Source of the DNA: Thermoproteota archaeon
Lineage (GTDB): Archaea; Korarchaeota; Korarchaeia; Korarchaeales; Korarchaeaceae
Length of the DNA stretch: 64,000 bases
NCBI GenBank assembly: GCA_027492205.1
Contig: JAOZFN010000014.1
Coordinates: 1 to 64,000 of the forward strand
Reading direction: 5' to 3'
Program-made: the position numbers and the translations under genes
The notes under the pieces: generated by a model
What the model was told of the DNA's origin: nothing
The model's input: only the letters and a program-made list of their open reading frames with translations
Databases searched by the model: none
Shown here: piece by piece, positions 50,122 to 64,000 of the stretch
How the letters are laid out: every line of letters begins with the position of its first letter
How positions within the stretch are numbered: position 1 is the stretch's first letter

Positions 50122-50736
50122 ATGGCCGACCTCTCGGCGCTACTGCTGCTGGGCGCGCTGAGCCTCCTGGGCGTGATCCTCTACTTGGCGATACACTACA
50201 GCGTCCGGCCAGGAGCGAAGCCCGGGGGGATAGATGATCCTCTCAGGCGAGCATTCCTCAGGTACTCCGTCTTGGCCTCGCTGGTCCTCGTCCTGGGGCA
50301 CGCCTGGGTGGGCGTGGAGGAGATGTTCAGGAGCCTCACAAGGCAGATCAAGCTAGAGCCCGTCTACGTGGCGAACCTGAGGGAGCTGGAGCCCGGGTCG
50401 GCGGTGTCCTTCATGATGCCGGTCGACCCGGACATGCTGCCTGCGGATCACCCCTGCATCCTCATCAGGCTCACGCCGGAGGAGGCCCAGAGGGCCGGGA
50501 GGGAGCTGGTCGCGTACAGCGCCAGGTGCACCCACCTCGGGTGCATAGTGGAGTACCTGGAGACGGACGGCAGAGAGATCTACTGCCCCTGCCACGCTGG
50601 GATATTCGACCCCCTGACGGGGAACCCAATCTCCGGACCCCCGAAGAGGCCGCTCCCGGAGGTACAGCTCAGGGTAGAGGAGGACGGTTCAATCTACGCC
50701 GTGGGGTGGGTGGGGCAAGGTGAGCAGGGCGAGTGA
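50122..50736 (+). CDS. Rieske 2Fe-2S subunit of a Rieske/cytochrome b complex
   Basis: CTHLGC and CPCHAG boxes, GPPKRPL; internal Tat-like RRAFL. Confidence 0.93.
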   Translation: MADLSALLLLGALSLLGVILYLAIHYSVRPGAKPGGIDDPLRRAFLRYSVLASLVLVLGHAWVGVEEMFRSLTRQIKLEPVYVANLRELEPGSAVSFMMPVDPDMLPADHPCILIRLTPEEAQRAGRELVAYSARCTHLGCIVEYLETDGREIYCPCHAGIFDPLTGNPISGPPKRPLPEVQLRVEEDGSIYAVGWVGQGEQGE

Positions 50737-52141
50737 GGGTCCCTCCCTCAGGGAGAGGTGGACGCTCAAGTGGTGGGCCAGGGTGCACGGGGGCTGCAAG
50801 ATCCCCCTGCACGCCCTAAGCCCGCTCAACGGCCTCGGCGGCCTGGCGTTCCTCATGCTCCTGATCGAGGCCGTGACCGGCATCATCCTGGGCATGTACT
50901 ACGAGCCCAGGTTCAACGAGGCCAACCTGGCCTACGAGAGCGTTGTCGCCATCACCGAGAACCTCAAGTACGGCTGGCTCCTCAGGGGAATTCACTACCA
51001 CGCCGCCAACCTGATGATCGTGCTCAGCCTGCTCCACTTCCTGAAGACCTACATCGCCGGCAACTACCGAGAGCCGAAGGGCCTCTGCCACGTGGTCGGC
51101 ATCCTGACCGGCCTCCTGGCCATACTGGCCTCCATCACGGGATACTCGATGAGGGCCGACCACATAGGGGCGGAGGCGATCCTCATCGGCCAGACGCTGG
51201 TGAAGTACATGCCCATGGGGGGCCTGCTCTTCAGGATGGTCTACGGGGTCGGCACCATGGACGACGCCCTCATCAGGTACAACGCCTACCACTACGCCCT
51301 CGGGGCCCTGCTGATAGGGCTTGTCCTCCTCCACGTGTGGTTCAGCCACAGGCACCACGCCGCCCCTCCCATGGACGACGGGCCCTCCATCCCCGCGATG
51401 CCCGTCTTCCCGAACTTCCTGCTGTCCGTCCTGTCGGGGGTGTTCATGGTCCTAGGCGGGTTGGTGCTGCTCAGCGTCGCGTTCCCTCCCCACCTAGGCG
51501 TGAAGTACGTGCCGGGAGAGCCCGTCCCGCCCGGCGTGCCGGAGTGGTACATGGTGGGAGACTACACCCTCATCAAGAGCGGCATAAACCCGGTGATCGC
51601 GGGCATGGTCGTACCGCTCCTGGCCGTGACCCCGATAGCCCTCATGCCCTGGATAGACAGCTCTGGGCCCAGGCACCCCAGGCACAGGAGGTTCGCGATG
51701 ACCTACCTGTCGGTGTTCATGGCCGAGTTCACCCTCATGACCGTGTGGGGTTACCTGACCCCGGGTCAGCAGGTCCTGCTCTCGCAGCAGCTTCCGGCGG
51801 CCCTGGCCGTGGCGGTGCTGGCCGCGATCCCGGCCCACTGCGCCACCAGGCCGAGGGTGGTCAAGTTCGGGGCCCCGGAGGCCAAGAGGGTGGAGAAGAA
51901 GCCGATCCTGCCGTGGAGGAATATAGCATCGTGGGTCATGGCGATGCCAGTCGGCGTGGTGACGGCCCTTCTGGGGTGCCAGGTGGCTCTGGCGCTGCTG
52001 GGGTGGTACTGGAACCACCTGGGACTCCAGCGGCTATACGCAATGTCACTGGGCGCCTCGCTGTTCGCGCTCGGGGTCGTGCTGCTGGTGGCCAAGTCGG
52101 CGCTATTCGATCTCGACATGCTAAGGAGGAGGCCTACGTGA
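50720..52141 (+). CDS. Cytochrome b (unsplit) of a Rieske/cytochrome b complex
   Basis: Heme ligands GIHYH..LLHF and AYHY..LLHV; Qo motif PEWY. Confidence 0.92.
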   Translation: MSRASEGPSLRERWTLKWWARVHGGCKIPLHALSPLNGLGGLAFLMLLIEAVTGIILGMYYEPRFNEANLAYESVVAITENLKYGWLLRGIHYHAANLMIVLSLLHFLKTYIAGNYREPKGLCHVVGILTGLLAILASITGYSMRADHIGAEAILIGQTLVKYMPMGGLLFRMVYGVGTMDDALIRYNAYHYALGALLIGLVLLHVWFSHRHHAAPPMDDGPSIPAMPVFPNFLLSVLSGVFMVLGGLVLLSVAFPPHLGVKYVPGEPVPPGVPEWYMVGDYTLIKSGINPVIAGMVVPLLAVTPIALMPWIDSSGPRHPRHRRFAMTYLSVFMAEFTLMTVWGYLTPGQQVLLSQQLPAALAVAVLAAIPAHCATRPRVVKFGAPEAKRVEKKPILPWRNIASWVMAMPVGVVTALLGCQVALALLGWYWNHLGLQRLYAMSLGASLFALGVVLLVAKSALFDLDMLRRRPT

Positions 52142-52164: not shown

Positions 52165-54297
52165 TCAATTCGGTCCCCCGGGAGTAGCCGCCCTGAACCG
52201 CCAGGTGTCGGATCCGTCCGGAACCCTCTGCCAGGTGCGGCCGTCATCCCGAGTGTCCCTCATCAGTATGGTGAAGTCGACGAGCTTCCCCCTGCTGTCT
52301 ATAAGCTGGACGCACTCATTTCTGTTGTCCAGCCACCTGCCAGAGGGGAGGAAGACGTAGTACGGCTGCCACGGCCAGATTATCGCGAACGGAATCTCCC
52401 GCTCCGCCGGCTCTCCGTGGAGCGCCACGACCCTCCACCCCCGGATGATGACCGGGTACCAGTTTGGATTGTACAGCTCCACCCACTCACCGTCCGCGTC
52501 CCCCCCTTCTGGGTTGAGCTCCACCTCGTTCACGTACACCAGGTGACTCGGCCTCTGCACGACGGCGTACATCCTCCACGCCGCGGTCCCCGACTCTGTG
52601 TCTCCGTCGGTGAAGTGTATCAGGAGGGCCCCCTCGTGAGTCCCGGGGGACGCCGAACCGGCCTCTATCCTGAACGTCACGGCGGCATATCCTCCCGGGG
52701 CTATGGTGGCCTCTCCCACCTTTCCGGCATCCCTCCTCCAGACGAGGGTACCGCCCACCCTCACCTTGTAGATCAGGTCGACCATCTCGCCTGTCGGCTC
52801 GGCCCAGACGTACTGGGTCTCGTCGTCGTAATTCACAAGAACCACTATTCCGTTCCTCACGCTGACCTCGCCCTGTCCAACTATCCCGAGGTCGATTAGT
52901 ATCTGACCGTCGGTGACGTTGCTCCAGTACCGGTCGCCCGTGGCCACGTTGGCCCCCCCTGGGAGGACTATTGAGACCCGCCCTGAGAGTCCCCAGACGC
53001 CATACTCGCTCGCGCTCGCGTACCCTGAGGAGGCCAGCAGTGAGAGGGCGACCAGAGCGACCGCCGCTAGCTTCACTTCCCCCGCCAGCCTCAGCTCCGA
53101 CCTGACCCTGGGATGAGCCCGCCTCCCAGTCATCTCCTCGAGATCTCTCACTATCTCTGCGAGAGTTATCACCTCTTCGTCGCTGAGCCTTCCCCTCGCC
53201 GCCGCAAATCGCCTGGGCAGCTCCTCAAGCATCTGCTCCAGGACGTCTCCCTTTTCCCTGTAGAGGAGCAAGAAGACAACGGGAAGAGCGGAGATAAGTG
53301 CTACGACTAGCGAGTTACCAAAGATTATTCCCGCGAGGGGGTCTAGGTGGGAGAGTCTCTCGAGGGTCGAGTCCGGCAGGATCATGCCGAAGGTGACGCT
53401 CCATATGTGGATCTTCCCACCGAGTTTGACCACACCCTCACTCTGAGGGGCCAGAACGGGCACCCTGAGTTCCACCCTCCCCCCGGCCGGGACGCTGACC
53501 ACCCGCGCGGGCAGCTCTACCATATCCCAAAGCTCTCCCTCCGGGCTCAGTACGGCGGTCGTCGGAAGCATTCCGTCGTTTTCTACCGTTATAGTGAGGT
53601 TCGCCGACCCGCCCGGGGGAAGCGCCACGCTGGTGCCCATCCCCACGGACTCTCTGAGCCTCGGATCCACAATAACCGTGAACCCGACGACGTCGCTGTT
53701 CATCACCCCGAGGATCCCCATCATGACCATCGCCACGAGGACTGCCATCAGCACGCCCGCACGGCCTCCCCTCTCCTTCCTCTCGAGGATTGAGGGTCCG
53801 ATCAGCAGTCCCATGACCACAGCGGATGTCGCGAACAGGCCCGCCGGGTTCGTGAGCACAGACCTCAGCCCGGGACCCAGGTAGATGGCCAGGTAGCCCA
53901 CCCTAGGTACCTTGATCGGCCGACCGCCGAGCGAAAGGGCCCTCCCCCTGACCTGAGAGATGGGGGTGTACTCCACTCCGCATGCCTCCTGATCCGTCAG
54001 CTCGTTCGCATCGCCCTTCGTTACGATACCCTGGTGCGTCACTTCGACGACCCTGTGGAGGACCTCGTACCCGTTGCAGATCCTGACAAGCACTATGTCC
54101 CCCACCTCGACGCCCTTAATGGGCCAGACCACCACCAGGTCTCCCCTCTGAAGGGTGGGCCTCATGGACCCCGAGGTAACGACGCGGAGGGGGTACGGAA
54201 CGCCCAGGAAGGTGGAGGCGATGAAAAACAGAGAGAGGGCGAGCGCGCTCAGGAGGGCCGCATCAGCAGCCACCCTCAGAGCGCGCCGCCAGGTCAT
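52165..54297 (-). CDS. SipW/S26B-type signal peptidase fused to an Ig-like domain, a fibre-subunit-like domain and a lamin-tail domain
   Basis: SGSMRPTL..GD, VLHRV, TKGDAN..D (Ser/His type); five hydrophobic segments; C-terminal VYVNEVELNP...EWVELYNP...WLDN...TPGGPN. Confidence 0.88.
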   Translation of the reverse strand: MTWRRALRVAADAALLSALALSLFFIASTFLGVPYPLRVVTSGSMRPTLQRGDLVVVWPIKGVEVGDIVLVRICNGYEVLHRVVEVTHQGIVTKGDANELTDQEACGVEYTPISQVRGRALSLGGRPIKVPRVGYLAIYLGPGLRSVLTNPAGLFATSAVVMGLLIGPSILERKERGGRAGVLMAVLVAMVMMGILGVMNSDVVGFTVIVDPRLRESVGMGTSVALPPGGSANLTITVENDGMLPTTAVLSPEGELWDMVELPARVVSVPAGGRVELRVPVLAPQSEGVVKLGGKIHIWSVTFGMILPDSTLERLSHLDPLAGIIFGNSLVVALISALPVVFLLLYREKGDVLEQMLEELPRRFAAARGRLSDEEVITLAEIVRDLEEMTGRRAHPRVRSELRLAGEVKLAAVALVALSLLASSGYASASEYGVWGLSGRVSIVLPGGANVATGDRYWSNVTDGQILIDLGIVGQGEVSVRNGIVVLVNYDDETQYVWAEPTGEMVDLIYKVRVGGTLVWRRDAGKVGEATIAPGGYAAVTFRIEAGSASPGTHEGALLIHFTDGDTESGTAAWRMYAVVQRPSHLVYVNEVELNPEGGDADGEWVELYNPNWYPVIIRGWRVVALHGEPAEREIPFAIIWPWQPYYVFLPSGRWLDNRNECVQLIDSRGKLVDFTILMRDTRDDGRTWQRVPDGSDTWRFRAATPGGPN

Positions 54298-54331
54298 GAT
54301 GCCCCTCTAGCTAGACCAGCTGGCGACTAGA

Positions 54332-54898
54332 TTAACTCTCCGGACTGCCGGGGCTGGACGGGGTGCCGCTCGCGCCCTGCTCCATGCCCTGCATCTGTAC
54401 CGTGAACGCCTGGTCGGATCCCAGCGGGGCCGTCGGGCCTATGCTCAGCATCACCCCGACGGTACCAGTCTCATCGCTGTCAAGTGTGAGCGGGTCGCTC
54501 TGGGTTATCTGGGTCCACGAGCTCCCGGTCCACTTGTAGAACGTCAGGCTCACCCCGCTGGGGAGCCCACTCGTCTCGAACCAGAAGACCCACGTCTCGT
54601 CGTCGTAGTTGGTCACGTTGAAGGCAGCCATGGCCTTGAAGGTCATCCCCCTCGCCCAGGGACCGAAGTCGCACTCGATCATGCTGGAAGAGTTGACGTA
54701 GCAGACGTTGTGGGCCGAGGCGCCGGGGCCTTTCACCGTGTCCAGGCCGGGTATTATCGCAATGTTGGCGCTCTGCGGGGCTACTATGCTGACCCTGGCC
54801 CCGATGCCCGCCTGCATGTACTCGTAGGCCCTGACTCCCACCGAGAGCGTTAGCATCAGGAAGGTGAGGGCCAGCGCGGCCCTTCTCCAGTTGGCCAT
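54332..54898 (-). CDS. Secreted beta-rich protein, putative TasA/DUF1102-like fibre subunit
   Basis: Signal peptide MANWRRAALALTFLMLTLSVGVRA, no C-terminal anchor, immediately upstream of the SipW-like peptidase; FNVTN motif. Confidence 0.7.
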   Translation of the reverse strand: MANWRRAALALTFLMLTLSVGVRAYEYMQAGIGARVSIVAPQSANIAIIPGLDTVKGPGASAHNVCYVNSSSMIECDFGPWARGMTFKAMAAFNVTNYDDETWVFWFETSGLPSGVSLTFYKWTGSSWTQITQSDPLTLDSDETGTVGVMLSIGPTAPLGSDQAFTVQMQGMEQGASGTPSSPGSPES

Positions 54899-54934
54899 GG
54901 CCAACACCGCTATACTGTTTAGCCCACCTCCTCT

Positions 54935-55113
54935 ATTAATGTTGGCACCTCTGCTTCTATTGCAAGCAATTGACTTGAAATTCATGCGATATACCGGGCA
55001 TTCTCCCCCATGGAGATATGTTTGAACAATATCTTTAATTTCCTCCGATTGATTTTCATTTTCTCTCATATTAATCAAAACATCTTTCATAAATTGGGTA
55101 TTAAAGTTTACTG
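54935..55113. promoter_or_regulatory. AT-rich divergent promoter region
   Basis: Strong AT island between the fibre operon and the hydrolase; imperfect inverted repeat AGATATGTT..AACAATATCT near 55014-55034. Confidence 0.55.
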
Positions 55114-55408
55114 CGTGCGGATCTGCAGGAGGCGAAGCTCAGGAGTGAGAAGAGTTACGGAGGTTCGCTTCCCAACTCGGGGAGCCTTGGAAATCGCCTC
55201 AGCCTGTACGTCTTCTCTATCCTGGGCTCTGACCGATCCCCTCTCGCCAAGAATCTCAGATAGGGACTTCAACTCGGTGTAGGAGGAGAAGAGGGCGCGG
55301 GAAAACGTGGTGGAGAATCGTTCAAAGGACTAGACCTCTCATACCCTTCCTCTCGGGCGAGTACGGCAGAGGTAATTAAAATACCGAATGTGTGCTTAAG
55401 AGTTTAAG

Positions 55409-57274
55409 ATGAGGCCCACTGGGCGGGCGGCGGACAGGGTGGTGATCCGCCGCCCCATCGTCTTTCTCCTCCTCTCAGGGCTGATGCTCCCAAACGCTCT
55501 CGCGGCCGCCGGAGGTCCACACTCTGGCCGAGTTGTGGTCGGCTGGCGACCCAGAAAGCTCCTCTTCTATTACGGATACCCCAGTCTGTTCAACGGGGCC
55601 GGCGGGAATCTGGAGCGGGCTGCCGCCCAGTTCGACCGCTACGACATCGTGGTCCTAGGGGCCGGCCTCGAGGACCCGGCCCACCCCCAGCACCAGGCCG
55701 CTTCAGCGGTCATAGGACTGAGCGAGGCGCAGTTCTATGGGTACGTCCCGCTTACGCTGCCGATCGGAGAAGTCTGCGAGAGGATAGACGAGTGGGCCGA
55801 CATGGGGGTCGCGGGGGTGTTCCTCGACGAGGGCGGGTACGACTACCTTGCGCCGAGGCTGGGGGGCATCCTGCGGGCCAGGATGCACCAGGTCGAGGCC
55901 GTCCGGTGTGCCAGGGAAAGGGGGCTGGCGGAGGCCCTGAACGCCTGGAACCCCGCAGACGTGCTCGCGTCCTCCCACGGGGAGCCCCCCCTACCGCTCG
56001 GGGAGGGAGACGCGGTGCTGATCGAGAGCTTCGTCTACGGCGCGGGGGAGACTAGGGAGGAGTACCTCTGGCACGTCGACGAGTACGCCCGAATGAAGGT
56101 GAGTGGAGGCCCGGAGTACTGGTGCCTCGTCACCACGGGGGCGGCGAGCGAGCACGAGAACCGACTGGTGGGGTACGACGCCCTGACCTACGCTGGAGAG
56201 ATCTGCGACGCCGTGGCAGTTCAGGAGGACCTTGGGGAGGACTCTACAGTGTTCTACGCGTTCGCCGAGCGGGAGGGAGCGCCCGGATGGCGGAGGATCA
56301 GGGGAATGACGCTGGCCGCCTACTGGGTCGGCGACTTCGACAATCGGACCGAGCTAAGGATCGTGCTGGAGAGGGTCAGGGGCATGTGCCTGAACACGAT
56401 AGCGATTTCTCCCTACTGGGCCACTCCCAACCTGCGATCGACCGAGATAAGGCCGACGGAAGTCACCGTGAGCGACGACGACCTTCGGGCCCTCATCAGG
56501 ATGGCGAAGTCCCTCGGGTTCCGGGTCATGCTGAAGCCCTCCCTGATAGTCGAGACGGGCGAGTGGTTCGCCCTCCTTGATCCGGTGGACAGGGACGCTT
56601 GGTTCGAGTCCTACAGGAGGTTCCTGCTCCACTACGCCGAGATCGCCCAGGAAGAGGGCGTCGAGTATCTGGTGGTGGAGGTGGAGCTCAGCTCGATGGT
56701 CTCAGACGAGAGGTGGTTCGGGCTCATCGACGAGGTTCGGGCCGCGTACTCCGGCCTCATAGGGTACGCCCAGCCGCAGGGTGGGGAGTTCAACCCCCAG
56801 GAGGCCCTGCCCGTGTTCGCGGAGGGGGTCGACTTTATCGGGATAGACGCCTACTACCCCCTGCCCTCGGGGAACCTCTCCGAGATCGCGGGGGCCTGGA
56901 GGGAGATTCACCTGAGGAGGATAGAGCCGCTCGGGCTCCTGTTCGGGAAGCCCGTGGTGTTCACCGAGATAGGCTACAGGAGCGTGGTCGGGGCCGCAGA
57001 TGCCCCGTGGGACTGGCGGTCCGACCTGCCGATGAGCGAGGAGGAGCAGGCCCTCCTCTGGAGGGCCTTCCTGGTGGCCGAGGAGCCGCTCGTAGACGGG
57101 TTCGTCTACTGGGCCGAGACGAGCGGCGAGTGGGACCCGTCTACCGACAAGGGATACTCGATCCTCTACAAGGAGGCTGAGCTGGTTGTGAGGGGGGCGG
57201 CGTGCGGGGGACAGAGACCTCGAGGCAGACCGAGTGTGTACAAATCGAGGTCTTTCGGGTTGTTCCCGCTCTAG
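55409..57274 (+). CDS. Secreted tandem glycoside hydrolase: N-terminal TIM barrel (GH114/GH135-like) + GH113-like domain
   Basis: Signal peptide; GVAGVFLDEGGYDY..NAWNP; then RVMLKP, WFESY..FLLHYA, VDFIGIDAYYPL, KPVVFTEIGYRS. Confidence 0.75.
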   Translation: MRPTGRAADRVVIRRPIVFLLLSGLMLPNALAAAGGPHSGRVVVGWRPRKLLFYYGYPSLFNGAGGNLERAAAQFDRYDIVVLGAGLEDPAHPQHQAASAVIGLSEAQFYGYVPLTLPIGEVCERIDEWADMGVAGVFLDEGGYDYLAPRLGGILRARMHQVEAVRCARERGLAEALNAWNPADVLASSHGEPPLPLGEGDAVLIESFVYGAGETREEYLWHVDEYARMKVSGGPEYWCLVTTGAASEHENRLVGYDALTYAGEICDAVAVQEDLGEDSTVFYAFAEREGAPGWRRIRGMTLAAYWVGDFDNRTELRIVLERVRGMCLNTIAISPYWATPNLRSTEIRPTEVTVSDDDLRALIRMAKSLGFRVMLKPSLIVETGEWFALLDPVDRDAWFESYRRFLLHYAEIAQEEGVEYLVVEVELSSMVSDERWFGLIDEVRAAYSGLIGYAQPQGGEFNPQEALPVFAEGVDFIGIDAYYPLPSGNLSEIAGAWREIHLRRIEPLGLLFGKPVVFTEIGYRSVVGAADAPWDWRSDLPMSEEEQALLWRAFLVAEEPLVDGFVYWAETSGEWDPSTDKGYSILYKEAELVVRGAACGGQRPRGRPSVYKSRSFGLFPL

Positions 57275-57332
57275 GCCCAATCTCAAGCCTGGTCCCGGTG
57301 GATCGGCCGCCGGAGAATCAGGGGGGCCTTCC

Positions 57333-58700
57333 TCACGGCCTCCATCCAACGACCTCCCTAGACAAGAATCTGAGGAGAGACTCCAGCTTGAGATATGAGA
57401 GCCACAGGGAGTAGGCAACGTGGTAGGGAACGGTCCAGGGAATGAGATCCGCCCTCCCCTTCGACGCCAGAACCGTCGACGTCACGATGATCCCCGGGAC
57501 GTGCTGGAGCGGTAGGAAGGCGAGGAAGGCCAGAGATATCACCTTGAGCGGCACGGATCCCAGGAGCAGACCGACTCCGGTGAGCCTCGAGATCAGGAGG
57601 GCGAGCGGCACGGCCACGTATCCCAACACGCCCAGCGAAGGGAGTAGATACTCGACCAGGATCAGGTACGCGAAGAGGGCGACTCCCACGGCCCCCCGCC
57701 TCAGGCTGAGTATCATCTCCGGGTACTTGGAGAGGACCTGCAGCCCCCCGACGAACCACCTCACCCTCTGGGACCTCAGCTCCCGAGCGCTCCTCACCGG
57801 CTTGGTCCAGGCGACGGCCTGGGGCGCGTAAACCACCCTGTAACCCCTCCTCCAGGTCGAAAGGGACACGTCAAAGTCCTCCGCAACGGTGTCAGGTGGA
57901 ATCAGACCCATCTCCCTCAGTAGGGACCCCTTGTAGATCCCCATGGCCCCCGGGGTTATGAGCACCCACCCCATGTAGTCCTGGACCGTCTTCCCGAGCC
58001 AGTAGGAGGCGGCGTACTCTATCTCCTGCATCCTCTGCAGGAAGGAGGGCCTGATCGACGGGGCCACCCTCACGTCCCCGGAGGCGGCGCCCACGTCCTC
58101 AGCTCGGAGGGCGTCAACGGCCGCCCGGGCCGCCCACCTGGACAGCACGGTGTCCGCGTCCGTGGTTATTATCACCTCCCCCCTGGCCGATGCTATGCCC
58201 AGGGTCAGGGCCTCCGCCTTTCCCCTGTTCTCGGGGTTGACCAGAACCCTGGCCCCAGCGGCGCGAGCGACTTCGGCCGTTGAGTCCGTGGATCCGTCGT
58301 CCACCACTATGACCTCCAGCCTGTCTTGGGGGTAGTCCTGCCTGAGCGCGCCCTTGACGGCCAAACCGACGGAGAGTTCCTCGTTGTAGGCGGGGATGAC
58401 CACCGACAGGCTCGGCGGGTCTCCCCCGTCTTGGATCACGTCGGTGGGGCGGGACCTCACGGCTGCAAGCCAGACCAAGAACAGGAATAGGTAGACGGAG
58501 ACCAGGAACGCCCCGAGGAGGAGGAACAGGGAGATCACCACAAGGCGTACCTGGTCTGGAGGGGCATCCGGGTAGACCAGGGAGACCAGCCACGGGATGG
58601 CCCTGGTCAGGAACACCCCGTGGGCGGCGGTCCCCCCCACGCTGCCCGCGAGGGCAACCGCGTAGACTGCCCTCCTCCTCCAGCGCCCACCAGAGCTCAA
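57333..58700 (-). CDS. Processive GT2 glycosyltransferase (IcaA/PgaC-like polysaccharide synthase)
   Basis: IPAYNEE, DDGSTD, GKA, TDAD, AEDFD, QRVRW; N- and C-terminal TM helices. Confidence 0.9.
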   Translation of the reverse strand: MSSGGRWRRRAVYAVALAGSVGGTAAHGVFLTRAIPWLVSLVYPDAPPDQVRLVVISLFLLLGAFLVSVYLFLFLVWLAAVRSRPTDVIQDGGDPPSLSVVIPAYNEELSVGLAVKGALRQDYPQDRLEVIVVDDGSTDSTAEVARAAGARVLVNPENRGKAEALTLGIASARGEVIITTDADTVLSRWAARAAVDALRAEDVGAASGDVRVAPSIRPSFLQRMQEIEYAASYWLGKTVQDYMGWVLITPGAMGIYKGSLLREMGLIPPDTVAEDFDVSLSTWRRGYRVVYAPQAVAWTKPVRSARELRSQRVRWFVGGLQVLSKYPEMILSLRRGAVGVALFAYLILVEYLLPSLGVLGYVAVPLALLISRLTGVGLLLGSVPLKVISLAFLAFLPLQHVPGIIVTSTVLASKGRADLIPWTVPYHVAYSLWLSYLKLESLLRFLSREVVGWRP

Positions 58701-60139
58701 AGGGCGGTCCCTCCGACGGCCCTCCTAAGGGCGTCGCTCGGGTACAGCTCGGTCAGGCCCCCGACATCCGCGGCGGCGACCGCCCCTATGTCTACCAGCC
58801 ACCTAACCAGCCTGACCACCCTCTCGAGCGGAGCCCCCATCTCCACGGCAATCTCCTCCGGCGTGAGCCCCGGCCTCTCAGAGATGAGGGTCAGCACCCT
58901 CCAGGTGAGCGGGTCGGCGGCCAGGCTCATGGCCAGGACCAGCTCCCTGTCCCTGGGGTGGAACCAGAGCCTCCCGACCCCCCTGACCACCGCCGAGTCG
59001 ATCAGCCCGCAGGCCTCCATGGCTGCCAGCCTGACCTTCGTGGGAATCCTGCACCCCTCACACTCCGCCTCCAGCTCGGGGAGAGACCTCCCAGGGGCGT
59101 CGAGGATCAGGGAATACAGCTTTCCACTGGACCTGTCGGCCCTGAGCACCTTCCTCAAGATGGGCCTCAGGGGCATCAGGGCTGCCACGCCCGCGGCGTA
59201 GGGCGCGTAGCCGACCAGCGTCGCGCCCAACAGGGCCGCGTAGGATAGGCTGGCGAACCACGCCACCCCCCTGGGAGTCGCGATGGACGCCGCCGCGGAC
59301 CTCACCAACGCCGCCGCCCTGTCCCACGCTGGCGGGGGTCTGGGCACCACGCCCTCCTCGGCCGCCGAGAGAGCGCGACCGACCAGCTCCAGGATCCCCC
59401 CGGATTTGACCTTCGACTCCACGACCGGGACCACCGGGTTGAAGGCCAGCGTGAGCACCGCGCCCCCGCCAGAGCGGCAGGCGACGATGGCGGGTGAGCC
59501 GTCCGCTTCTGACGTGGCGAGGACCGAGCAGTTGGAGGATGGTCTCAGGTTCGCCCACCACAGGGAGGGGTCGTAGCTCGCCGTCACCGACCCCCCTACC
59601 TCGTGGATAGTCACAGTCCCGGTGCCGGTGTTCAGCGAGGTGAGCTCAACTCCGGTCAGCTCCTCGAGAGGGGGAGACCAGCTCTGCGAGTAGGTGTTTA
59701 GGCCCACCAGCAGGACCCTCCCCTCGCCCACCACCCGGCCGAGGGCTCGAATCTCCTCCTCGGTGATTGCCCCGCCCTCGGTCCAGGGGACGTTCAGGTC
59801 TGGGATCCAGATTTCGGAGAAGCCTCTCAGGAACCAGGTGTCAGACAGCCTCTCCCTCTCTTCGTCCGCCCCCGAGTACTCAGAGCCGAGGTAGAGGACC
59901 TCAACCCTGATCTCGCGACCCTCTGCCTCAGACAGCGAGCCGGCCAGCTCCTTCCCGAACCTGACGTCCTCGACGTCTGAGGCTACCAGGAGGACGCTGG
60001 GGGGAGGGGTCTGCCCACCCCTGGTCTCACTTCCCCCCTGGACCGCAGAGCCGGGGAGAAGCGCGCCCGCGACCAGGAGCACGGAGGCGGAGAGGGCGAT
60101 AAGCAGAAGAGGCCGAGGGGCTGACTGGGATCTGGACAA
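58697..60139 (-). CDS. Extracellular alpha/beta (GATase-like) domain + TM + tandem wHTH regulator, paralog 1
   Basis: Signal peptide, GGGAVLTLAFNPV, TM, APGRSLPEL and RPGLTPEEIAVEMG HTH units. Confidence 0.7.
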   Translation of the reverse strand: MSRSQSAPRPLLLIALSASVLLVAGALLPGSAVQGGSETRGGQTPPPSVLLVASDVEDVRFGKELAGSLSEAEGREIRVEVLYLGSEYSGADEERERLSDTWFLRGFSEIWIPDLNVPWTEGGAITEEEIRALGRVVGEGRVLLVGLNTYSQSWSPPLEELTGVELTSLNTGTGTVTIHEVGGSVTASYDPSLWWANLRPSSNCSVLATSEADGSPAIVACRSGGGAVLTLAFNPVVPVVESKVKSGGILELVGRALSAAEEGVVPRPPPAWDRAAALVRSAAASIATPRGVAWFASLSYAALLGATLVGYAPYAAGVAALMPLRPILRKVLRADRSSGKLYSLILDAPGRSLPELEAECEGCRIPTKVRLAAMEACGLIDSAVVRGVGRLWFHPRDRELVLAMSLAADPLTWRVLTLISERPGLTPEEIAVEMGAPLERVVRLVRWLVDIGAVAAADVGGLTELYPSDALRRAVGGTAL

Positions 60140-60210
60140 CTGAAAGCACCTCCCACAGGCTTCAGCCCCTCCCTCGCCCTCTTGAGGCAGGATGGAGCGA
60201 AGGAGGCGGC

Positions 60211-60903
60211 TCAGCGCTGGTCAGCCGCCTCCAGCCTCCTCCAGCCCAGTGGGGCCAAAATCAGTCCCAGGACGGCAGCCACGAACAGGGGGACCTCCGG
60301 AACCTCCTGCCCGTCTATCTTCACGCTATTCGCCGTTCCGTCGGAAGCAATCACTCCGTTCCCCGGGTACAGCCTGTCCCACTTGATCGCGAACTGCTCA
60401 ACGTAGGTGACGGAGATCTCGTCGCCCTCCTTGAGGCTCCCGTCTTCGGTGCTCCAGGTATAACCGTCGACCGTCAGCGTGGTGGCACCCCCCACCACAA
60501 CCTTGACGTTGTAGCTGTGCTCGACCCCACTACCGGTGCAATCGACGTCGAGGTAGCCACTCACCTCCTTCCCGCCGTTGACGCTCACCGACCCGTAGGC
60601 GCCTCCCTCCACGTGCAGCGCGCCCTGACTACCCGAGATGTACCCGTCCTTCCCCACCCGCTCAACCGTCACTGTCACGGAGTCCCCGGGGTTCACCTCC
60701 ACGGGCTTCCCGCTCACCTTTATGGTGCAACTCCCCGCCTTCTCGATTGTGGTCTTTCCTGTCACGAAGTATTTGTTGGATGGCTTCATGGCTTCGAGCC
60801 GGGCGCTGTACGTCTGCGCCTCTGCCATGGCCAGGGAGCCCACCAGCGCCGCCAGCACCAGCAGGGCCAGGCTCCTCCGGACGGACTTACCCAACCTCAT
60901 CAC
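60211..60903 (-). CDS. Secreted protein with PEF-CTERM-like sorting signal (archaeosortase substrate)
   Basis: Signal peptide; C-terminus EVPEVP-LFVAAVLGLILAPLG-WRR (motif, TM, basic cluster). Confidence 0.75.
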   Translation of the reverse strand: MMRLGKSVRRSLALLVLAALVGSLAMAEAQTYSARLEAMKPSNKYFVTGKTTIEKAGSCTIKVSGKPVEVNPGDSVTVTVERVGKDGYISGSQGALHVEGGAYGSVSVNGGKEVSGYLDVDCTGSGVEHSYNVKVVVGGATTLTVDGYTWSTEDGSLKEGDEISVTYVEQFAIKWDRLYPGNGVIASDGTANSVKIDGQEVPEVPLFVAAVLGLILAPLGWRRLEAADQR

Positions 60904-61451
60904 CCCTCATCACCTCCACCAGGCTCTCGGGGCCGTCCATTAAAAGGAGTCTGGCGCGCGGCGCTAACGGTCCCCCCGGTCGGCCCCCTCGCGGGGAGGA
61001 CGTCTCGGAGCCAGAGCCCCCACATGGTGATCGCGACGACGAGCAGGAGCGCCCCGCCGACGACCCTGTGGGCCAGCCCCACCGCCACCTCCCCGAACGC
61101 CTTGTAGGCCAGCAGGGTGGCGGCGAGCCTCGCCAGGTTGGCCAGGTACAGGGCGGCGAGGCCCTCCGCAACCCCCCAGGCCTTGGCCCTCCACCCGACC
61201 CCGGGGGCGGGCGCGATGAGCGAGGCGTAGAGGGTCATGGACATGGCGCCCGAGCACTCAGCCGTTATGACTATGGACGGCCCCCCTCGCAGGGTCACGA
61301 TCCCGGGACCCGTGACGGCGGACCCCACCCCGACCAGGGAGAGCAGCCAGGCCGTGTGTTTCGCCTCCACGAGCAGTATCGCGTCAGAGGACCTCCAGAA
61401 GGCCAGTGTCAAGCCGGCCATGGCGACGCAGAAGCCGGCGACGTATCTCAG
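60900..61451 (-). CDS. Archaeosortase/exosortase family protein
   Basis: Catalytic pattern ITAECSG...ANLARL...LAHR. CTG start at 61451 overlaps the upstream stop and adds MRYVAGFCVA. Confidence 0.85.
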   Translation of the reverse strand: MRYVAGFCVAMAGLTLAFWRSSDAILLVEAKHTAWLLSLVGVGSAVTGPGIVTLRGGPSIVITAECSGAMSMTLYASLIAPAPGVGWRAKAWGVAEGLAALYLANLARLAATLLAYKAFGEVAVGLAHRVVGGALLLVVAITMWGLWLRDVLPARGPTGGTVSAARQTPFNGRPREPGGGDEG

Positions 61452-62773
61452 GACGAGCCGTCCGCCCCCTGCCTGCCGAGCAGCCAGCGCTCGATCACCT
61501 CCCTTGCCCAGTCCGATAGGGACACGCTGACGGACCTACCGTTCCTGCTGACGGTCACTACGCCGTGAAAGGCCATGACGTCCACGTTCCTCTTCACGGT
61601 CGGGGCCGAGACGCCCAGCCTCCTGGCGAGCCCCCTCACGCTCTCCGGACCGTCGAGGAGTAGGGTCTCTGCCAACCTCCTCCTCACCTCGCTCGCGAGC
61701 AGGCTCCTCAGTCGGGCCTCGTTGGCCATCTCGGGCGGGTAGTATATCCTCCTCCCCAGAAACACGGTGGAGGACACCAGCCCCCTGCTCTCCAGGACGT
61801 AAAGGTGCCACCTGACCGTCGACTCCGGCTCCCCCAGCCTCGACGAGATCTCCCTCAGGTTCAAGCCGGGGTGCCTCCTCAGCAGGCTGAAGATGGCCGA
61901 CCTCTTGCCGTCCCTGAGGGCGTCTGCCCTACGTATCCTAACGACCAGGGACGCGATCAGGGCCTTCCCCCTCCTGGATCTCCTCACCAGCTCCCCCGTG
62001 CCCAGCCCTCCGGCGAGGGCGACGGCGCCGATCAGGGCGGGTGGGGCCGGGTGAGGCCTGGACGTCGCCCTGAGCAGGAGCTCCTCGGTCACCCTCACGA
62101 GGTCCCTGTCTCCAGAGTCCCAGTAGGGCCAGACCGGGTTGAAGGCCAGGGCGAGCACCGCCCCGCCGCCGCACCTCGCCAAGACAGCAGCGGGGCCTCC
62201 GTCTCTGAACCTCGCGAGCACCTCCCCGTCGGTGAACTTCAGCTCGGCTCGACCGTAACTGGCCGGATCGTATTCCACCCCTCCCAGGCCCCCGCTGGGA
62301 CTGAACTCAAGCTCGATCAAGTCGCCCCCGGTTTTGGGGAAGTCCCAGGGGAGTGTCAAGAGTCCCTCGAGCGCGCCCAGGTAGAGGAGGGTGTTTGCGT
62401 CCGCGACCAGCAGGCCGCCCCCCTCGACGTACGACCTGATCGCCCGGGCGACCTCGGGCGGCATGTCCCTCCCGTTCCAGTCGAGGATCACCAGGGCGTT
62501 TGGACGCAGGGAGGACCAGTCTTCGATGTCGCCCGCCCAGGCGACGCGGAGTGGGATGCCGAGAGATTTCAACTCGATTGCGAACCTAAAATCTGGCTCG
62601 TCCAGGGCCACAAAAAGCAGTTCACCGCCGACGGCTGAGGAGGCGCTGATCCCGGCCGACAGCAGGCCCAGCAGGATGCCCAGCGAGAGCGCCCTCGCCA
62701 GCCCCTTCCGGCCGATGGAAATCGGCACAAGATCTGTTGCGGCGGCGCTCTTTTTATTCGTTTTCGCCGCCAA
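61448..62773 (-). CDS. Extracellular alpha/beta (GATase-like) domain + TM + tandem wHTH regulator, paralog 2
   Basis: YVEGGGLLVA, VLARFRDGGPAAV, GGGAVLALAFNPV, TM, HPGLNLREIS...TVRWHL and SVRGLARRLGVSAPTV. True start uncertain. Confidence 0.78.
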   Translation of the reverse strand: MAAKTNKKSAAATDLVPISIGRKGLARALSLGILLGLLSAGISASSAVGGELLFVALDEPDFRFAIELKSLGIPLRVAWAGDIEDWSSLRPNALVILDWNGRDMPPEVARAIRSYVEGGGLLVADANTLLYLGALEGLLTLPWDFPKTGGDLIELEFSPSGGLGGVEYDPASYGRAELKFTDGEVLARFRDGGPAAVLARCGGGAVLALAFNPVWPYWDSGDRDLVRVTEELLLRATSRPHPAPPALIGAVALAGGLGTGELVRRSRRGKALIASLVVRIRRADALRDGKRSAIFSLLRRHPGLNLREISSRLGEPESTVRWHLYVLESRGLVSSTVFLGRRIYYPPEMANEARLRSLLASEVRRRLAETLLLDGPESVRGLARRLGVSAPTVKRNVDVMAFHGVVTVSRNGRSVSVSLSDWAREVIERWLLGRQGADGSS

Positions 62774-62867
62774 TCGTACTCAGCGAACGCCGAATCCCGG
62801 CGAGTGGGGAAATCGGATCGGGCCGGGGAGACCCCACCAATGGACAGATTGGCGGGGGAGTGAGTCG

Positions 62868-63617
62868 TCATATCTTCCCCGTCAGCCTGGCCCTGAGGGT
62901 CATCCTCTTGAGCTCGGCGATCAGGCTCCCCGGCCTGATGTGCTTGGGGCACACCTCGGCGCACGCGTAGACCTGGTGGCACCTCCAGACTCCGGAGGCC
63001 TCGCTGTCTGCCACCAGGAGCCTCAGGGGCTTCACGTCGTCCCTCTCCCTAGAGTCCACCGCGAACCTGTACAGCTGGGTCAGCGCCGCGGGCCCCAGGA
63101 AGAGCGGGTCCGTCGCGGCCACCGGACACGCGGAGACGCAGGCCCCGCACCATATGCAGTCGGAGGGGGACTTGTACCTCTCGAACTCCATTGGGGAGAC
63201 CCTTGGCTCTCGCACGCCCTCCCTCGGGTAGAGGTAGGGCATTACGGCCTCCATCTGCCTCAGGAACGGCTCTATGTCCACGACGAGGTCCTTGAGCACC
63301 CGGAAGTGGGCCAGGGGCTCCACCTTCACCCTCCTGCCCAGGTCCGCGATCTGGGTCTCGCAGGCCAGCCTCTGCACCCCGTTTATCATCATGGCGCAGG
63401 AGCCGCAGATCTTGGCCCTGCAGCTGTACCTGAACGACAGGGTGGGGTCGAGCTCCTGCAGGATGTAGAGCAGCCCGTCGAGGACCGTCATGCCCCTCCG
63501 GTAGGGGACCTCGTACTCCACGTAGTAGGGGGCCCTGTCCCTCCTAGGGTCGAATCGGAAGACTGTGAACCTGACGGTCTCGCCCTCCCGAACCCGCCCG
63601 GGCATTCGCCGACTCAC
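62868..63617 (-). CDS. sdhB: Succinate dehydrogenase/fumarate reductase iron-sulfur subunit
   Basis: SCRAKICGSC..LAC, CIWCGACVSAC, CHQVYACAEVCP. Confidence 0.95.
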   Translation of the reverse strand: MSRRMPGRVREGETVRFTVFRFDPRRDRAPYYVEYEVPYRRGMTVLDGLLYILQELDPTLSFRYSCRAKICGSCAMMINGVQRLACETQIADLGRRVKVEPLAHFRVLKDLVVDIEPFLRQMEAVMPYLYPREGVREPRVSPMEFERYKSPSDCIWCGACVSACPVAATDPLFLGPAALTQLYRFAVDSRERDDVKPLRLLVADSEASGVWRCHQVYACAEVCPKHIRPGSLIAELKRMTLRARLTGKI

Positions 63618-63624
63618 CCCCTCC

Positions 63625-64000
63625 TCAGTACCTCCTCTCCGTGGGCTGCCACTTGGTGATCACCACCGGCTTGTAGTCGAACTCCGGCCCGTCCGGCGTG
63701 TAGAAGGCCAGCGTGTGCTTAAGCCATTTCTCATCGTCTCTCTTCGGGTAGTCCGTGCGGTAGTGCCCGCCCCTGCTCTCCGTACGCCTCAGCGCGCCCT
63801 CGGCCACCACCAGCGCCACGTCGAGCATCCCCTCAATGATGAGGGCGTCCAGCAGGCCCTGATTGAACGGCCCGGGCGGAGCCGGGACACCGGCACTCTC
63901 CCGATACTCCTTTCTCAGCCTCCTGATGGTCTCCACACCCTTCCTGAGACGCTCCTCATCCCTGAAGATCCCCACGTAGTCCCACATGGCCTGCTGCATG
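63625..64000 (-). CDS. sdhA: Succinate dehydrogenase/fumarate reductase flavoprotein, C-terminal part (truncated by window edge)
   Basis: MWDYVGIFR, RTESRGGHYRTDYPKRDD..WLKHT. Confidence 0.93.
   Translation of the reverse strand, partial: MQQAMWDYVGIFRDEERLRKGVETIRRLRKEYRESAGVPAPPGPFNQGLLDALIIEGMLDVALVVAEGALRRTESRGGHYRTDYPKRDDEKWLKHTLAFYTPDGPEFDYKPVVITKWQPTERRY

Follow-up and report, generated by a model that had tools for sequence, protein, structure and literature searches.

Gene content and layout of the block

The window analysed here, 64,000 nt of Korarchaeaceae DNA (contig JAOZFN010000014.1, assembly GCA_027492205.1), carries eight contiguous open reading frames (ORFs) that fill positions 52165-62773 (10.6 kb), with cytochrome b on one side and sdhB on the other (Table 1). 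An initial annotation had taken these eight envelope genes, whose coordinates we confirm, as one integrated biofilm-matrix system, in which a protein fibre, an exopolysaccharide, a remodelling hydrolase, a surface anchor and feedback sensors would act as a unit. Our analysis of the proteins and of related genomes leads to another reading: the block is probably a composite cell-surface island at a variable site, made of three separable modules, and not one biofilm-matrix system. These modules are a fibre pair (module A), a secreted hydrolase (module B) and a five-gene run that includes an archaeosortase and a membrane glycosyltransferase of family 2 (GT2; module C). The earlier unifying interpretation is not supported by the distribution of the parts.

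The source genome (1.94 Mb in 17 contigs, 96.4% complete) has a GC content of 0.633, and the block, at 0.648, is host-like. Hydropathy analysis detects at least one hydrophobic segment in all eight proteins. Searches with Pfam and NCBIfam uphold most of the earlier domain calls; no family in these two collections was matched by the 188-amino-acid (aa) subunit, by the 230-aa protein or by the greater part of the 480-aa protein. The five-gene run has the order first described. Four-nucleotide overlaps, reported for three of its four junctions, are in fact found at two, archaeosortase/substrate (GTGA) and 480-aa gene/GT2 (TTGA), which makes these two pairs translationally coupled. The genes at the remaining junctions are 26 and 71 nt apart, and in the longer gap GGAGGTG precedes a TTG start. 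The divergent intergenic region between the subunit and hydrolase genes may serve as a promoter region: GC content is 0.549 at 54500-55499, against 0.63 for the genome, and an A/T-rich TTAAAATA lies about 30 nt ahead of the hydrolase ATG. The DNA repeats detected in the block reflect its two paralogue pairs. We also considered a defence island, and rejected it because defence-system models match only the winged-helix parts.

Table 1. Genes, domains and flanking features of the block (positions in the window; a slash within a motif marks a predicted cleavage site)
Feature	Position	Strand	Basis or remark
Rieske/cytochrome b	50122-52141	+	left flank
710-aa fusion: TafD-like S26 core, pilin-like domain, lamin-tail domain	52165..54297	-	TIGR02228, PF10502, PF00932
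C-terminal lamin-tail domain of the fusion, residues 586-710	52168..52542	-	PF00932, E 8.8e-06, 26.5 bits, below the 34.3 cutoff
DUF1102-like pilin-like domain of the fusion, residues 433-583	52549..53001	-	BLASTP against the subunit
Internal signal-peptide-like segment, residues 404-426, then ASA/SEY (427-432)	53002..53088	-	hydropathy; aligns with subunit signal peptide and VRA/YEY
Middle domain of the fusion, residues ~200-320, between hydrophobic segments 3 and 4	53338..53700	-	kept in G025 and G037 homologues
S26 catalytic domain, residues ~15-121	53935..54255	-	family match 53935-54252
188-aa secreted pilin-like subunit	54332..54898	-	signal peptide, predicted cleavage VRA/YEY after residue 24
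Divergent intergenic region, subunit gene/hydrolase gene	54899..55408	.	GC-poorer
621-aa secreted two-domain hydrolase	55409..57274	+	N-terminal hydrophobic segment, residues 17-35
Hydrolase N-terminal domain, residues ~45-300	55541..56308	+	possibly Spherulin4-like, lead only
GH113 catalytic domain, residues 320-584	56366..57160	+	PF22612, 154.8 bits, cutoff 27
455-aa membrane GT2, processive-synthase type	57333..58700	-	best NCBIfam family PgaC_IcaA
480-aa membrane-tethered winged-helix protein, paralogue of the 441-aa protein	58697..60139	-	weak MarR_2 hit only
230-aa archaeosortase substrate	60211..60903	-	signal peptide, beta-rich body, C-terminal sorting signal 60214-60306
173-aa minimal archaeosortase	60900..61421	-	TIGR04178, 43.1 bits, cutoff 23
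441-aa protein: ectodomain, weak hydrophobic segment, two winged-helix domains	61448..62773	-	HTH_20, NF033788
sdhB	62868-63617	-	right flank; sdhB/sdhA run from 62868

A putative strand-exchange pilus module

The secreted subunit of module A is highly divergent. By itself it matches no Pfam family at E-values up to 10, being too distant to reach the DUF1102 model, and a word-based homologue search returned only the query. Its family has seven representatives at E<=0.001 among 1.84 billion, four of them full-length relatives. One member, P0005, matches DUF1102 (PF06510) at 6.2e-06, and an hhalign comparison of the family with the three DUF1102 proteins of genome G037 gave a probability of 94.4% (E 9e-08, 151 columns). 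Compared by sequence with solved structures, the family profile gave no credible match (best E 0.54).

AlphaFold models the subunit as an all-beta protein, with a predicted local distance difference test (pLDDT) of 74.6 and a predicted template modelling score (pTM) of 0.66. A fold search independent of Foldseek, run on 48,161 solved chains, ranked the Natrinema Tafi pilus first (9p0a_C, Z 7.0, root-mean-square deviation 3.2 over 110 residues), followed by the Sulfolobus thread at rank 2 (Z 6.4) and the archaeal bundling pilus (ABP) of Pyrobaculum at rank 4 (Z 6.2); rows within Z 1 of each other count as ties. TasA lies outside the 50 best matches, all of which are below Z 8. With Foldseek, the top rows are chaperone-usher pilins, EcpA being first at 1.0e-03, and ABP appears at rank 18.

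Prediction of a trimer of residues 25-188 gave a median score of 0.78 (runs 0.80, 0.62 and 0.78), against 0.02 for the best of three controls; in calibration, 20 of 30 solved pairs attained the mark, as did 1 of 23 single chains. Contact agreement between runs was at least 97% and partner pLDDT at least 84. In the model, residues 25-48 touch the neighbouring copy at its residues 73-91 and 153-184, a predicted geometry that corresponds to head-to-tail donor-strand complementation by the N-terminal strand.

With moderate confidence, drawn from profiles and models, we propose that the secreted protein is a major subunit with a fold of the DUF1102/TafA-TafE kind. Several observations speak against this assignment. 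The link to DUF1102 hangs on a single bridging sequence, since removing P0005 lowers the hhalign probability to 35% (E 3.9e-04). Foldseek finds no solved match with E below 1.0e-03, and Z values all below 8 can mean a mere shared beta-sandwich arrangement. The trimer score may stem from the model's memory of solved strand-exchange pili, and the trimer job, with three copies and its own six-row alignment, was unlike the calibration. The profile link, the Tafi pilin as best fold match and the trimer prediction nevertheless favour the earlier view that the secreted subunit and a dedicated S26 peptidase form a fibre module. Membership of the TasA family, which had been part of that view, has to be abandoned: no match to Peptidase_M73 was obtained in the locus, either with Pfam at E up to 10 or in a genome scan with PF12389.

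The second gene of the module encodes the 710-aa protein. It passes the model of archaeal signal peptidase I (TIGR02228, 59.7 bits, cutoff 51.85; PF10502, 24.8 bits) and, contrary to its first description as SipW-like, falls far short of the SipW equivalog (NF046067, 34.3 bits, cutoff 190). The catalytic residues Ser44 (SGSMRPT), His81-Arg82 (LHRV) and Asp96 (KGDAN) are present. Because a housekeeping signal peptidase is encoded on another contig (G000:C6:60668-61156, 90.1 bits), the 710-aa protein is best seen as a dedicated second paralogue. Residues 10-338 are 27% identical to the 360-aa peptidase of G037, and residues 4-583 are 29% identical to a 915-aa protein of G025, a genome of the same order. 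Hydropathy places hydrophobic segments at residues 15-33, 153-171, 181-199, 324-342 and 404-429, with a charged linker of about 60 residues between the fourth and the fifth. The middle domain matches no Pfam family and is predicted to be extracellular; by analogy with TafD, as passages of PMC11821415 describe it, it may have an immunoglobulin-like fold.

Beyond the peptidase, the protein resembles the subunit that it adjoins. BLASTP aligns the two at 31% identity over 108 residues (E 8e-07), signal peptide and VRA/YEY site included, and both contain the motif NYDDET, seen also as DNA repeat D3. The G025 homologue has ALA/FEY in place of ASA/SEY, and the 710-aa protein may be cleaved at this internal site. 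Up to residue 583 the architecture is kept in the G025 protein, whose C-terminal part is different and lacks the lamin-tail domain; here too, the peptidase gene comes after a gene for a subunit, 49% identical to that of the block. Of 43 genomes of the phylum, 2 have the fused form, and no mention of a peptidase-pilin fusion was found in searches of the literature on DUF1102 and TafD pilins or in passages of PMC12337348, supplements aside. The lamin-tail domain of the fusion is 36-38% identical to those in ORFs of two unrelated archaeal genomes, one of 1,096 aa (L055, G034:C1:1080476-1080871) and one of 350 aa (L056, G036:C8:23988-24362); such domains appear to move between archaeal surface proteins.

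Comparison with tafi and Bacillus fibre loci

Strand-exchange pili of the tafi type were described between 2023 and 2025 in haloarchaea, Thermococcales, Archaeoglobales and Sulfolobales, where they favour biofilm formation (passages of PMC11821415 and PMC12337348). According to passages of PMC11821415 and PMC12337348, tafi and taf-like clusters, found in Haloarcula hispanica, Natrinema sp. J7-2, Thermococcales and Archaeoglobales, combine TafA/TafE pilins or DUF1102 proteins with the TafD peptidase, the DUF5305 protein TafG and the regulator TafB. No Korarchaeal lineage is named in these passages, supplements aside. Our reference for such clusters is G037, a complete 1.9-Mb genome of another phylum, in which L054:7043-12898 encodes a DUF7344 winged-helix regulator, three DUF1102 proteins, the 360-aa S26 peptidase, a DUF11 protein and a DUF5305 protein, in agreement with the taf-like description in passages of PMC11821415.

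Module A shares with tafi a dedicated multi-segment S26 peptidase, with a second putatively extracellular domain, next to a small Sec-exported beta-rich pilin that links to DUF1102, has Tafi as best fold match and is predicted to chain head to tail through its N-terminal strand. It differs in having two genes instead of 5-7, a pilin too divergent for the DUF1102 model, and no separate tip or terminator subunits, pilin-like and lamin-tail domains being fused to the peptidase instead. Furthermore, DUF5305 (TafG) is missing: PF17231 has no match at E<=0.1 in the 96.4% complete genome, nor among the eight proteins. Like tapA-sipW-tasA of Bacillus subtilis, in which a signal peptidase of the archaeal and endoplasmic reticulum kind is encoded beside a strand-donating secreted fibre subunit (passages of PMC9245690), module A pairs a peptidase with a putative fibre subunit; unlike it, the locus has no SipW equivalog, no Peptidase_M73 protein and no TapA-like gene. 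The initial annotation had also stated that archaeal bundling pili have a dedicated peptidase. This is wrong for the Pyrobaculum ABP, for which no such gene was found according to passages of PMC9245690, and right for tafi pili, which depend on TafD (passages of PMC11821415).

Module A is probably related to the archaeal tafi pilus clusters, in a form reduced to two genes. After Sec-dependent export of the subunit, the S26 domain of the 710-aa protein, with its Ser/His/Asp residues, would cut off the signal peptide behind VRA, and mature subunits would join head to tail into a polymer, each placing its N-terminal strand in the next. The C-terminal part of the 710-aa protein could then stay in the membrane as a tethered base of the fibre, or be released by self-cleavage as a tip or adhesin of two domains; tethered or freed, the fused pilin-like domain might stand in for the separate tip and terminator subunits of taf clusters. 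We also raise, as a tentative possibility, a self-servicing pilus machine: the 710-aa protein would be peptidase and substrate in one, with a pilin-like A-x-A/x-E-Y site, and would cut free or tether its own C-terminal half. If so, it would yield a pilin-like and lamin-tail adhesin that primes or caps the fibre, it would replace separate TafC, TafF and TafG in a form conserved across an archaeal order, and no smaller set of genes than the fusion plus one pilin gene would be known for a strand-exchange pilus.

The peptidase-pilin-adhesin fusion is the most original feature of the block, and suggests how a tip or anchor subunit might be delivered without extra genes. The locus would extend tafi-type pili to an uncultured lineage, and with its two genes it lends itself to work in a heterologous host on what assembly minimally requires.

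Archaeosortase and substrate

Module C contains the only archaeosortase gene of the genome. The enzyme passes the general model and scores below the cutoffs (in parentheses) of the named subfamilies: XrtX 56.3 (170), ArtF 50.8 (150), ArtC 29.8 (100) and ArtB 19.9 (150) bits. It possesses the conserved residues Cys56 (ECSG, 55-58), Arg97 (NLARL, 95-99) and His118 (AHRV, 117-120). A word-based search among 5.8 billion proteins found no close homologue beyond the query.

The adjacent substrate ends in QEVPEVPLF (PEVP at residues 202-205), a 16-residue hydrophobic stretch and RRLEAADQR, a tail that is unique of its kind among the 9,249 stop-to-stop frames of the genome. As a single archaeosortase faces a single matching tail, the two would form a one-enzyme, one-target pair, well suited to a biochemical study of archaeosortase cleavage. 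Dedicated sorting systems of this type, with one-to-one sortase-target pairs in adjacent genes, are described in passages of 10.1101/2023.06.07.544157. In a sister genus, substrates located beside a different archaeosortase end in (S/F)EMP(L/V)F, a helix and K/R, so that the sorting element is better read as E-(V/M)-P-(L/V)-F than as VPEVP. The enzyme-substrate pair proposed at first therefore stands, with its model score, its Cys/Arg/His residues and its tripartite tail; the tail signal announced as VPEVP is real, and its true reading is QEVPEVPLF, with the element E-V-P-L-F abutting the helix. The motifs of archaeosortase subfamilies include VPXXXP. Titles and abstracts on Korarchaeal archaeosortases reveal no locus of this kind.

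A processive-type glycosyltransferase

The best NCBIfam family of the GT2 is PgaC_IcaA (149.2 bits, over model positions 22-307 of 407), followed by the XrtG-associated family (80.3), NodC (70.7) and CelA (69.7). All these outscore the dolichol-phosphate, N-glycan, lipid and protein glycosyltransferases, which reach at most 46.5 bits and align with the N-terminal half only; the GT2 thus does not group with non-polymerising enzymes. The motifs DDGS134, DAD181, EDFD274 and QRVRW (311-315) are present, with hydrophobic segments at residues 58-76 and, as a C-terminal bundle, 330-405. These sequence comparisons support a grouping with processive synthases of the cellulose, chitin or poly-N-acetylglucosamine type, in line with the polymerising GT2 with QxxRW of the initial annotation. 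Two observations go the other way. The score is far under the PgaC_IcaA equivalog cutoff (422.3), and the best solved relative is 6yv7 (79.8 bits, against 62 bits for BcsA), which we take to be a Pyrobaculum mannosyltransferase of N-glycan synthesis; given this identity, a non-polymerising role is possible.

Relative to PgaABCD and IcaADBC, the likeness lies in the family, in the D, DxD, ED and QxxRW motifs and in the flanking hydrophobic segments. The locus differs in that its eight proteins include no deacetylase (PgaB/IcaB), no PgaD/IcaD and no porin, and the hydrolase next to module C belongs to glycoside hydrolase family 113 (GH113), which is not known to act on poly-N-acetylglucosamine.

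Module C also resembles the bacterial PEP-CTERM/exosortase (EpsH) loci and the XrtG/XrtP glycosyltransferases (TIGR03111, NF053846). There, as in module C, a polytopic Cys/Arg/His enzyme and a substrate with motif, helix and basic tail are encoded near a membrane GT2 synthase and dedicated regulators, and the link between exosortases and exopolysaccharide was established by phylogenetic profiling (abstract of PMC1569441). The differences are that module C is archaeal, with no outer membrane, has one target rather than many, an EVPLF motif instead of PEP, an enzyme under every named subfamily cutoff, and membrane-tethered winged-helix regulators instead of PrsK/PrsR. We propose that module C could be the archaeal counterpart of these loci: the archaeosortase would cleave and anchor the EVPLF-tailed substrate, and the GT2 would make and export a beta-linked polymer. 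It would then be a compact archaeal case of a link between sortase and polysaccharide synthase so far known mainly from bacteria.

The link between sortase and synthase gains independent support from the sister genus. In all four genomes examined, a PgaC-like GT2 of 456-480 aa (QLRRW) lies two genes (about 1.3 kb) from a different archaeosortase, and EMP(L/V)F-tailed large proteins occur near the latter in the three genomes whose tails were read. The cluster is conserved (L048-L051 in G005, G012, G018 and G009; for example L051:6771-17308) and looks like an undescribed archaeosortase/exopolysaccharide locus. The PgaC-like GT2 comes first, followed by two proteins (219-246 aa) whose weak matches are left-handed-beta-helix acyltransferase-like, the archaeosortase (254-259 aa), a secreted protein of about 220 aa and large proteins (about 1,000 aa) with a terminal EMP(L/V)F, helix and K/R; then come a small GT2, a membrane protein of 843-861 aa and more genes of glycosyltransferase-like type.

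Membrane-tethered winged-helix proteins

The two winged-helix proteins are 30% identical over 217 residues, and such a paralogue pair exists at this locus only within the genome. The 441-aa protein matches HTH_20 (51.5 bits) and the ArsR/SmtB model NF033788 (63.7 bits, cutoff 55), and its family comprises five proteins among 5.8 billion in the word-based search. An N-terminal hydrophobic segment was scored in both proteins; a second, weaker one was read by eye from the translation. The ectodomain of the 441-aa protein was modelled with pLDDT 73.9 and pTM 0.77. Foldseek gave 160 hits at E<=1e-3 (best 8e-08, TMq 0.56-0.64), headed by glutamine-amidotransferase-like non-catalytic domains of GH42, GH164 and Op5Man5 enzymes and by ThuA-like proteins; the weak Pfam hints, Glyco_hydro_42M and DUF4159, agree. 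Atlas scores for the ectodomain (0.90-0.92) came with 125-132 shared features and were treated as uninformative. A protein downstream of the hydrolase in G007, which resembled the ectodomain by eye, proved unrelated.

The predicted topology of the 441-aa protein, with ectodomain, hydrophobic segment and cytoplasmic winged helices, fits a membrane-tethered regulator. Of the earlier 'sensor-wHTH' description, the membrane tether and the C-terminal winged helices are retained; the ectodomain is glutamine-amidotransferase-like, and feedback sensing is not supported.

Elsewhere in the genus, G001 (L058:9676-19988) and G004 (L057:159-5913) encode homologues of the 441-aa protein. Upstream of these are encoded a giant secreted protein, which has 2,845 aa in G001, and a 150-aa membrane MarR-like protein. 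This regulator family may generally accompany large surface proteins.

The secreted hydrolase and the question of synthase-hydrolase pairing

The product of module B was first described as a double glycoside hydrolase. Its C-terminal half is a firm GH113 member, and phmmer matches it to solved endo-beta-1,4-mannanases at E ~1e-22. For the N-terminal domain, likeness to Spherulin4 is a lead: PF12138 gives E 0.2-0.35 in two of three homologues, and Atlas gives a score of 0.90 with 190 shared features, all ten of the best family-bearing hits belonging to one family or clan. Its profile has no credible match among solved structures, with one chance-like hit at E 0.006 to a respiratory complex subunit, and no Spherulin4 members for a profile comparison were found among 41 genomes. 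Spherulin4 is presumably GH135. Compared with GH113 beta-mannanases (7dvz, 4cd6, 5ylh, 3civ), of which the C-terminal domain is a clear relative, the protein has in addition a signal peptide and this conserved N-terminal domain of 250 residues, possibly Spherulin4-like.

GH113 is present in 8 of the 24 genomes of the family that were searched, and full-length two-domain homologues occur in G001 (90%), G007 (57%) and G019 (44%). In the fetched flanks, no related GT2 accompanies the other GH113 loci (0 of 5) and no hydrolase accompanies the loci of GT2 paralogues (0 of 5). The pairing of synthase and hydrolase is therefore not conserved, which speaks against the remodelling role that the hydrolase would have in a single matrix system. 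We propose that module B may act independently of modules A and C, as a secreted GH113 hydrolase of the beta-mannanase family.

The hydrolase also invites an explanation in terms of general envelope upkeep and nutrition, with no biofilm function at all: the GH113 enzyme would break down environmental beta-mannans as food, the GT2 would serve N-glycan or glycolipid synthesis, the archaeosortase would attach one ordinary surface protein to lipid, and the pilus would act in adhesion or in some other role outside biofilms. The solved GH113 relatives being mannanases, such enzymes may simply digest mannans from the environment, and the hydrolase occurs without the other modules in G001, G007 and G019; 6yv7, an enzyme of N-glycan synthesis, is the best solved relative of the GT2. 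Archaeosortase A is known to anchor the S-layer glycoprotein (passages of 10.1101/2023.06.07.544157). We nevertheless find this explanation unlikely. The GT2 has the full set of processive motifs, the C-terminal hydrophobic bundle and a much higher score with PgaC_IcaA than with lipid and protein glycosyltransferases. No sugar transporter and no catabolic gene were found among the eight proteins, and Tafi pili promote biofilm formation in Natrinema (passages of PMC12337348).

A variable insertion site and three separable modules

Examination of the cytochrome b/sdhB site in five related genomes showed that the whole block is missing in four (congeners G002, G003 and G004, and relative L073), where the two genes are 29-162 bp apart. 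The fifth, G001, is the closest relative (cytochrome b 95% identical). Its site, reconstructed from two contig ends, contains only cytochrome b, the hydrolase and sdhB: at one end, cytochrome b is followed by 112 bp and the start of the hydrolase gene, and at the other, the 3' part of that gene is followed by about 120 bp and sdhB. The junction sequences show no gene remnants.

The fibre pair has its own distribution. In G025, the subunit and peptidase genes lie by themselves among genes for a KaiC-like protein, enolase and other unrelated housekeeping functions, and one metagenome contig repeats this arrangement. Over 185,579 species representatives and a metagenome set, a scan with the subunit-family alignment retrieved one genome record, which is G025, and one metagenome contig. 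Scans of genome contigs with the 480-aa protein found nothing, and with the GT2 one unrelated bacterial contig only. In no other genome searched (40 relatives, 43 genomes of the phylum for the fused peptidase, and the species representatives and metagenome set just named for the subunit) was the eight-gene combination present. The expectation that the homologues would co-occur elsewhere has thus largely failed for the whole set, and holds for the subunit-peptidase pair.

The cytochrome b/sdhB interval is therefore a variable insertion site and not a conserved system, and none of the three modules needs the other two in order to exist. How such a block was assembled may be envisaged in two ways, three gains or a single gain of eight genes followed by two deletions in G001. 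Both require three events, and as the G001 junctions show no remnants, the two histories account equally well for the pattern.

This bears directly on the proposal of one integrated system, which we consider improbable. Several observations agree with it: the eight genes are contiguous and all predicted to encode envelope proteins, the entire block is missing from the site in four of five relatives, its GC content is host-like, and a single gain with two losses takes no more events than three gains do. The sister genus likewise has an archaeosortase near a PgaC-like GT2, and the winged-helix paralogues are unique to the locus within the genome. Matrices made of fibre and exopolysaccharide are known in Bacillus (passages of PMC9245690). 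Set against these are the uniqueness of the combination, the hydrolase alone in G001 and the fibre pair alone in G025, and the separate GH113 and GT2 loci. The block uses both strands, with at least four transcription units judged by spacing, and in two congeners the 441-aa homologue has other neighbours, a giant surface protein and a small winged-helix protein of the membrane.

The reading as a composite island has its own difficulties. Separability of the modules is compatible with cooperation between them, the event counts do not favour it, and no boundary repeats, tRNA or integrase were seen at the borders of the block. A shared role of the modules in adhesion or matrix formation is plausible by analogy with the Tafi pili of Natrinema, which aid biofilm formation (PMC12337348), and with exosortase systems, which correlate with exopolysaccharide (PMC1569441). 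The sequences show what the genes and domains are, their homologies, the catalytic motifs and the distribution in relatives, and the models add a predicted oligomer; cleavage, polymerisation in vivo, the identity of the polymer, regulation and a part in biofilms are inferred. More generally, the comparison indicates that envelope genes lying side by side at a variable site are not evidence of a single system.

Flanking genes

The Rieske protein, cytochrome b and succinate dehydrogenase subunits are encoded together around the block, at 50122-52141 and 62868-63999. Neither cytochrome b nor sdhB has a match in G025, and respiratory capacity may thus be specific to the genus. The five-gene run is separated from sdhB by 94 bp (62774-62867), in which a perfect 6-bp inverted repeat, GTGGGG ... 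CCCCAC, encloses a G+C-rich loop and could be a terminator or a regulatory site.

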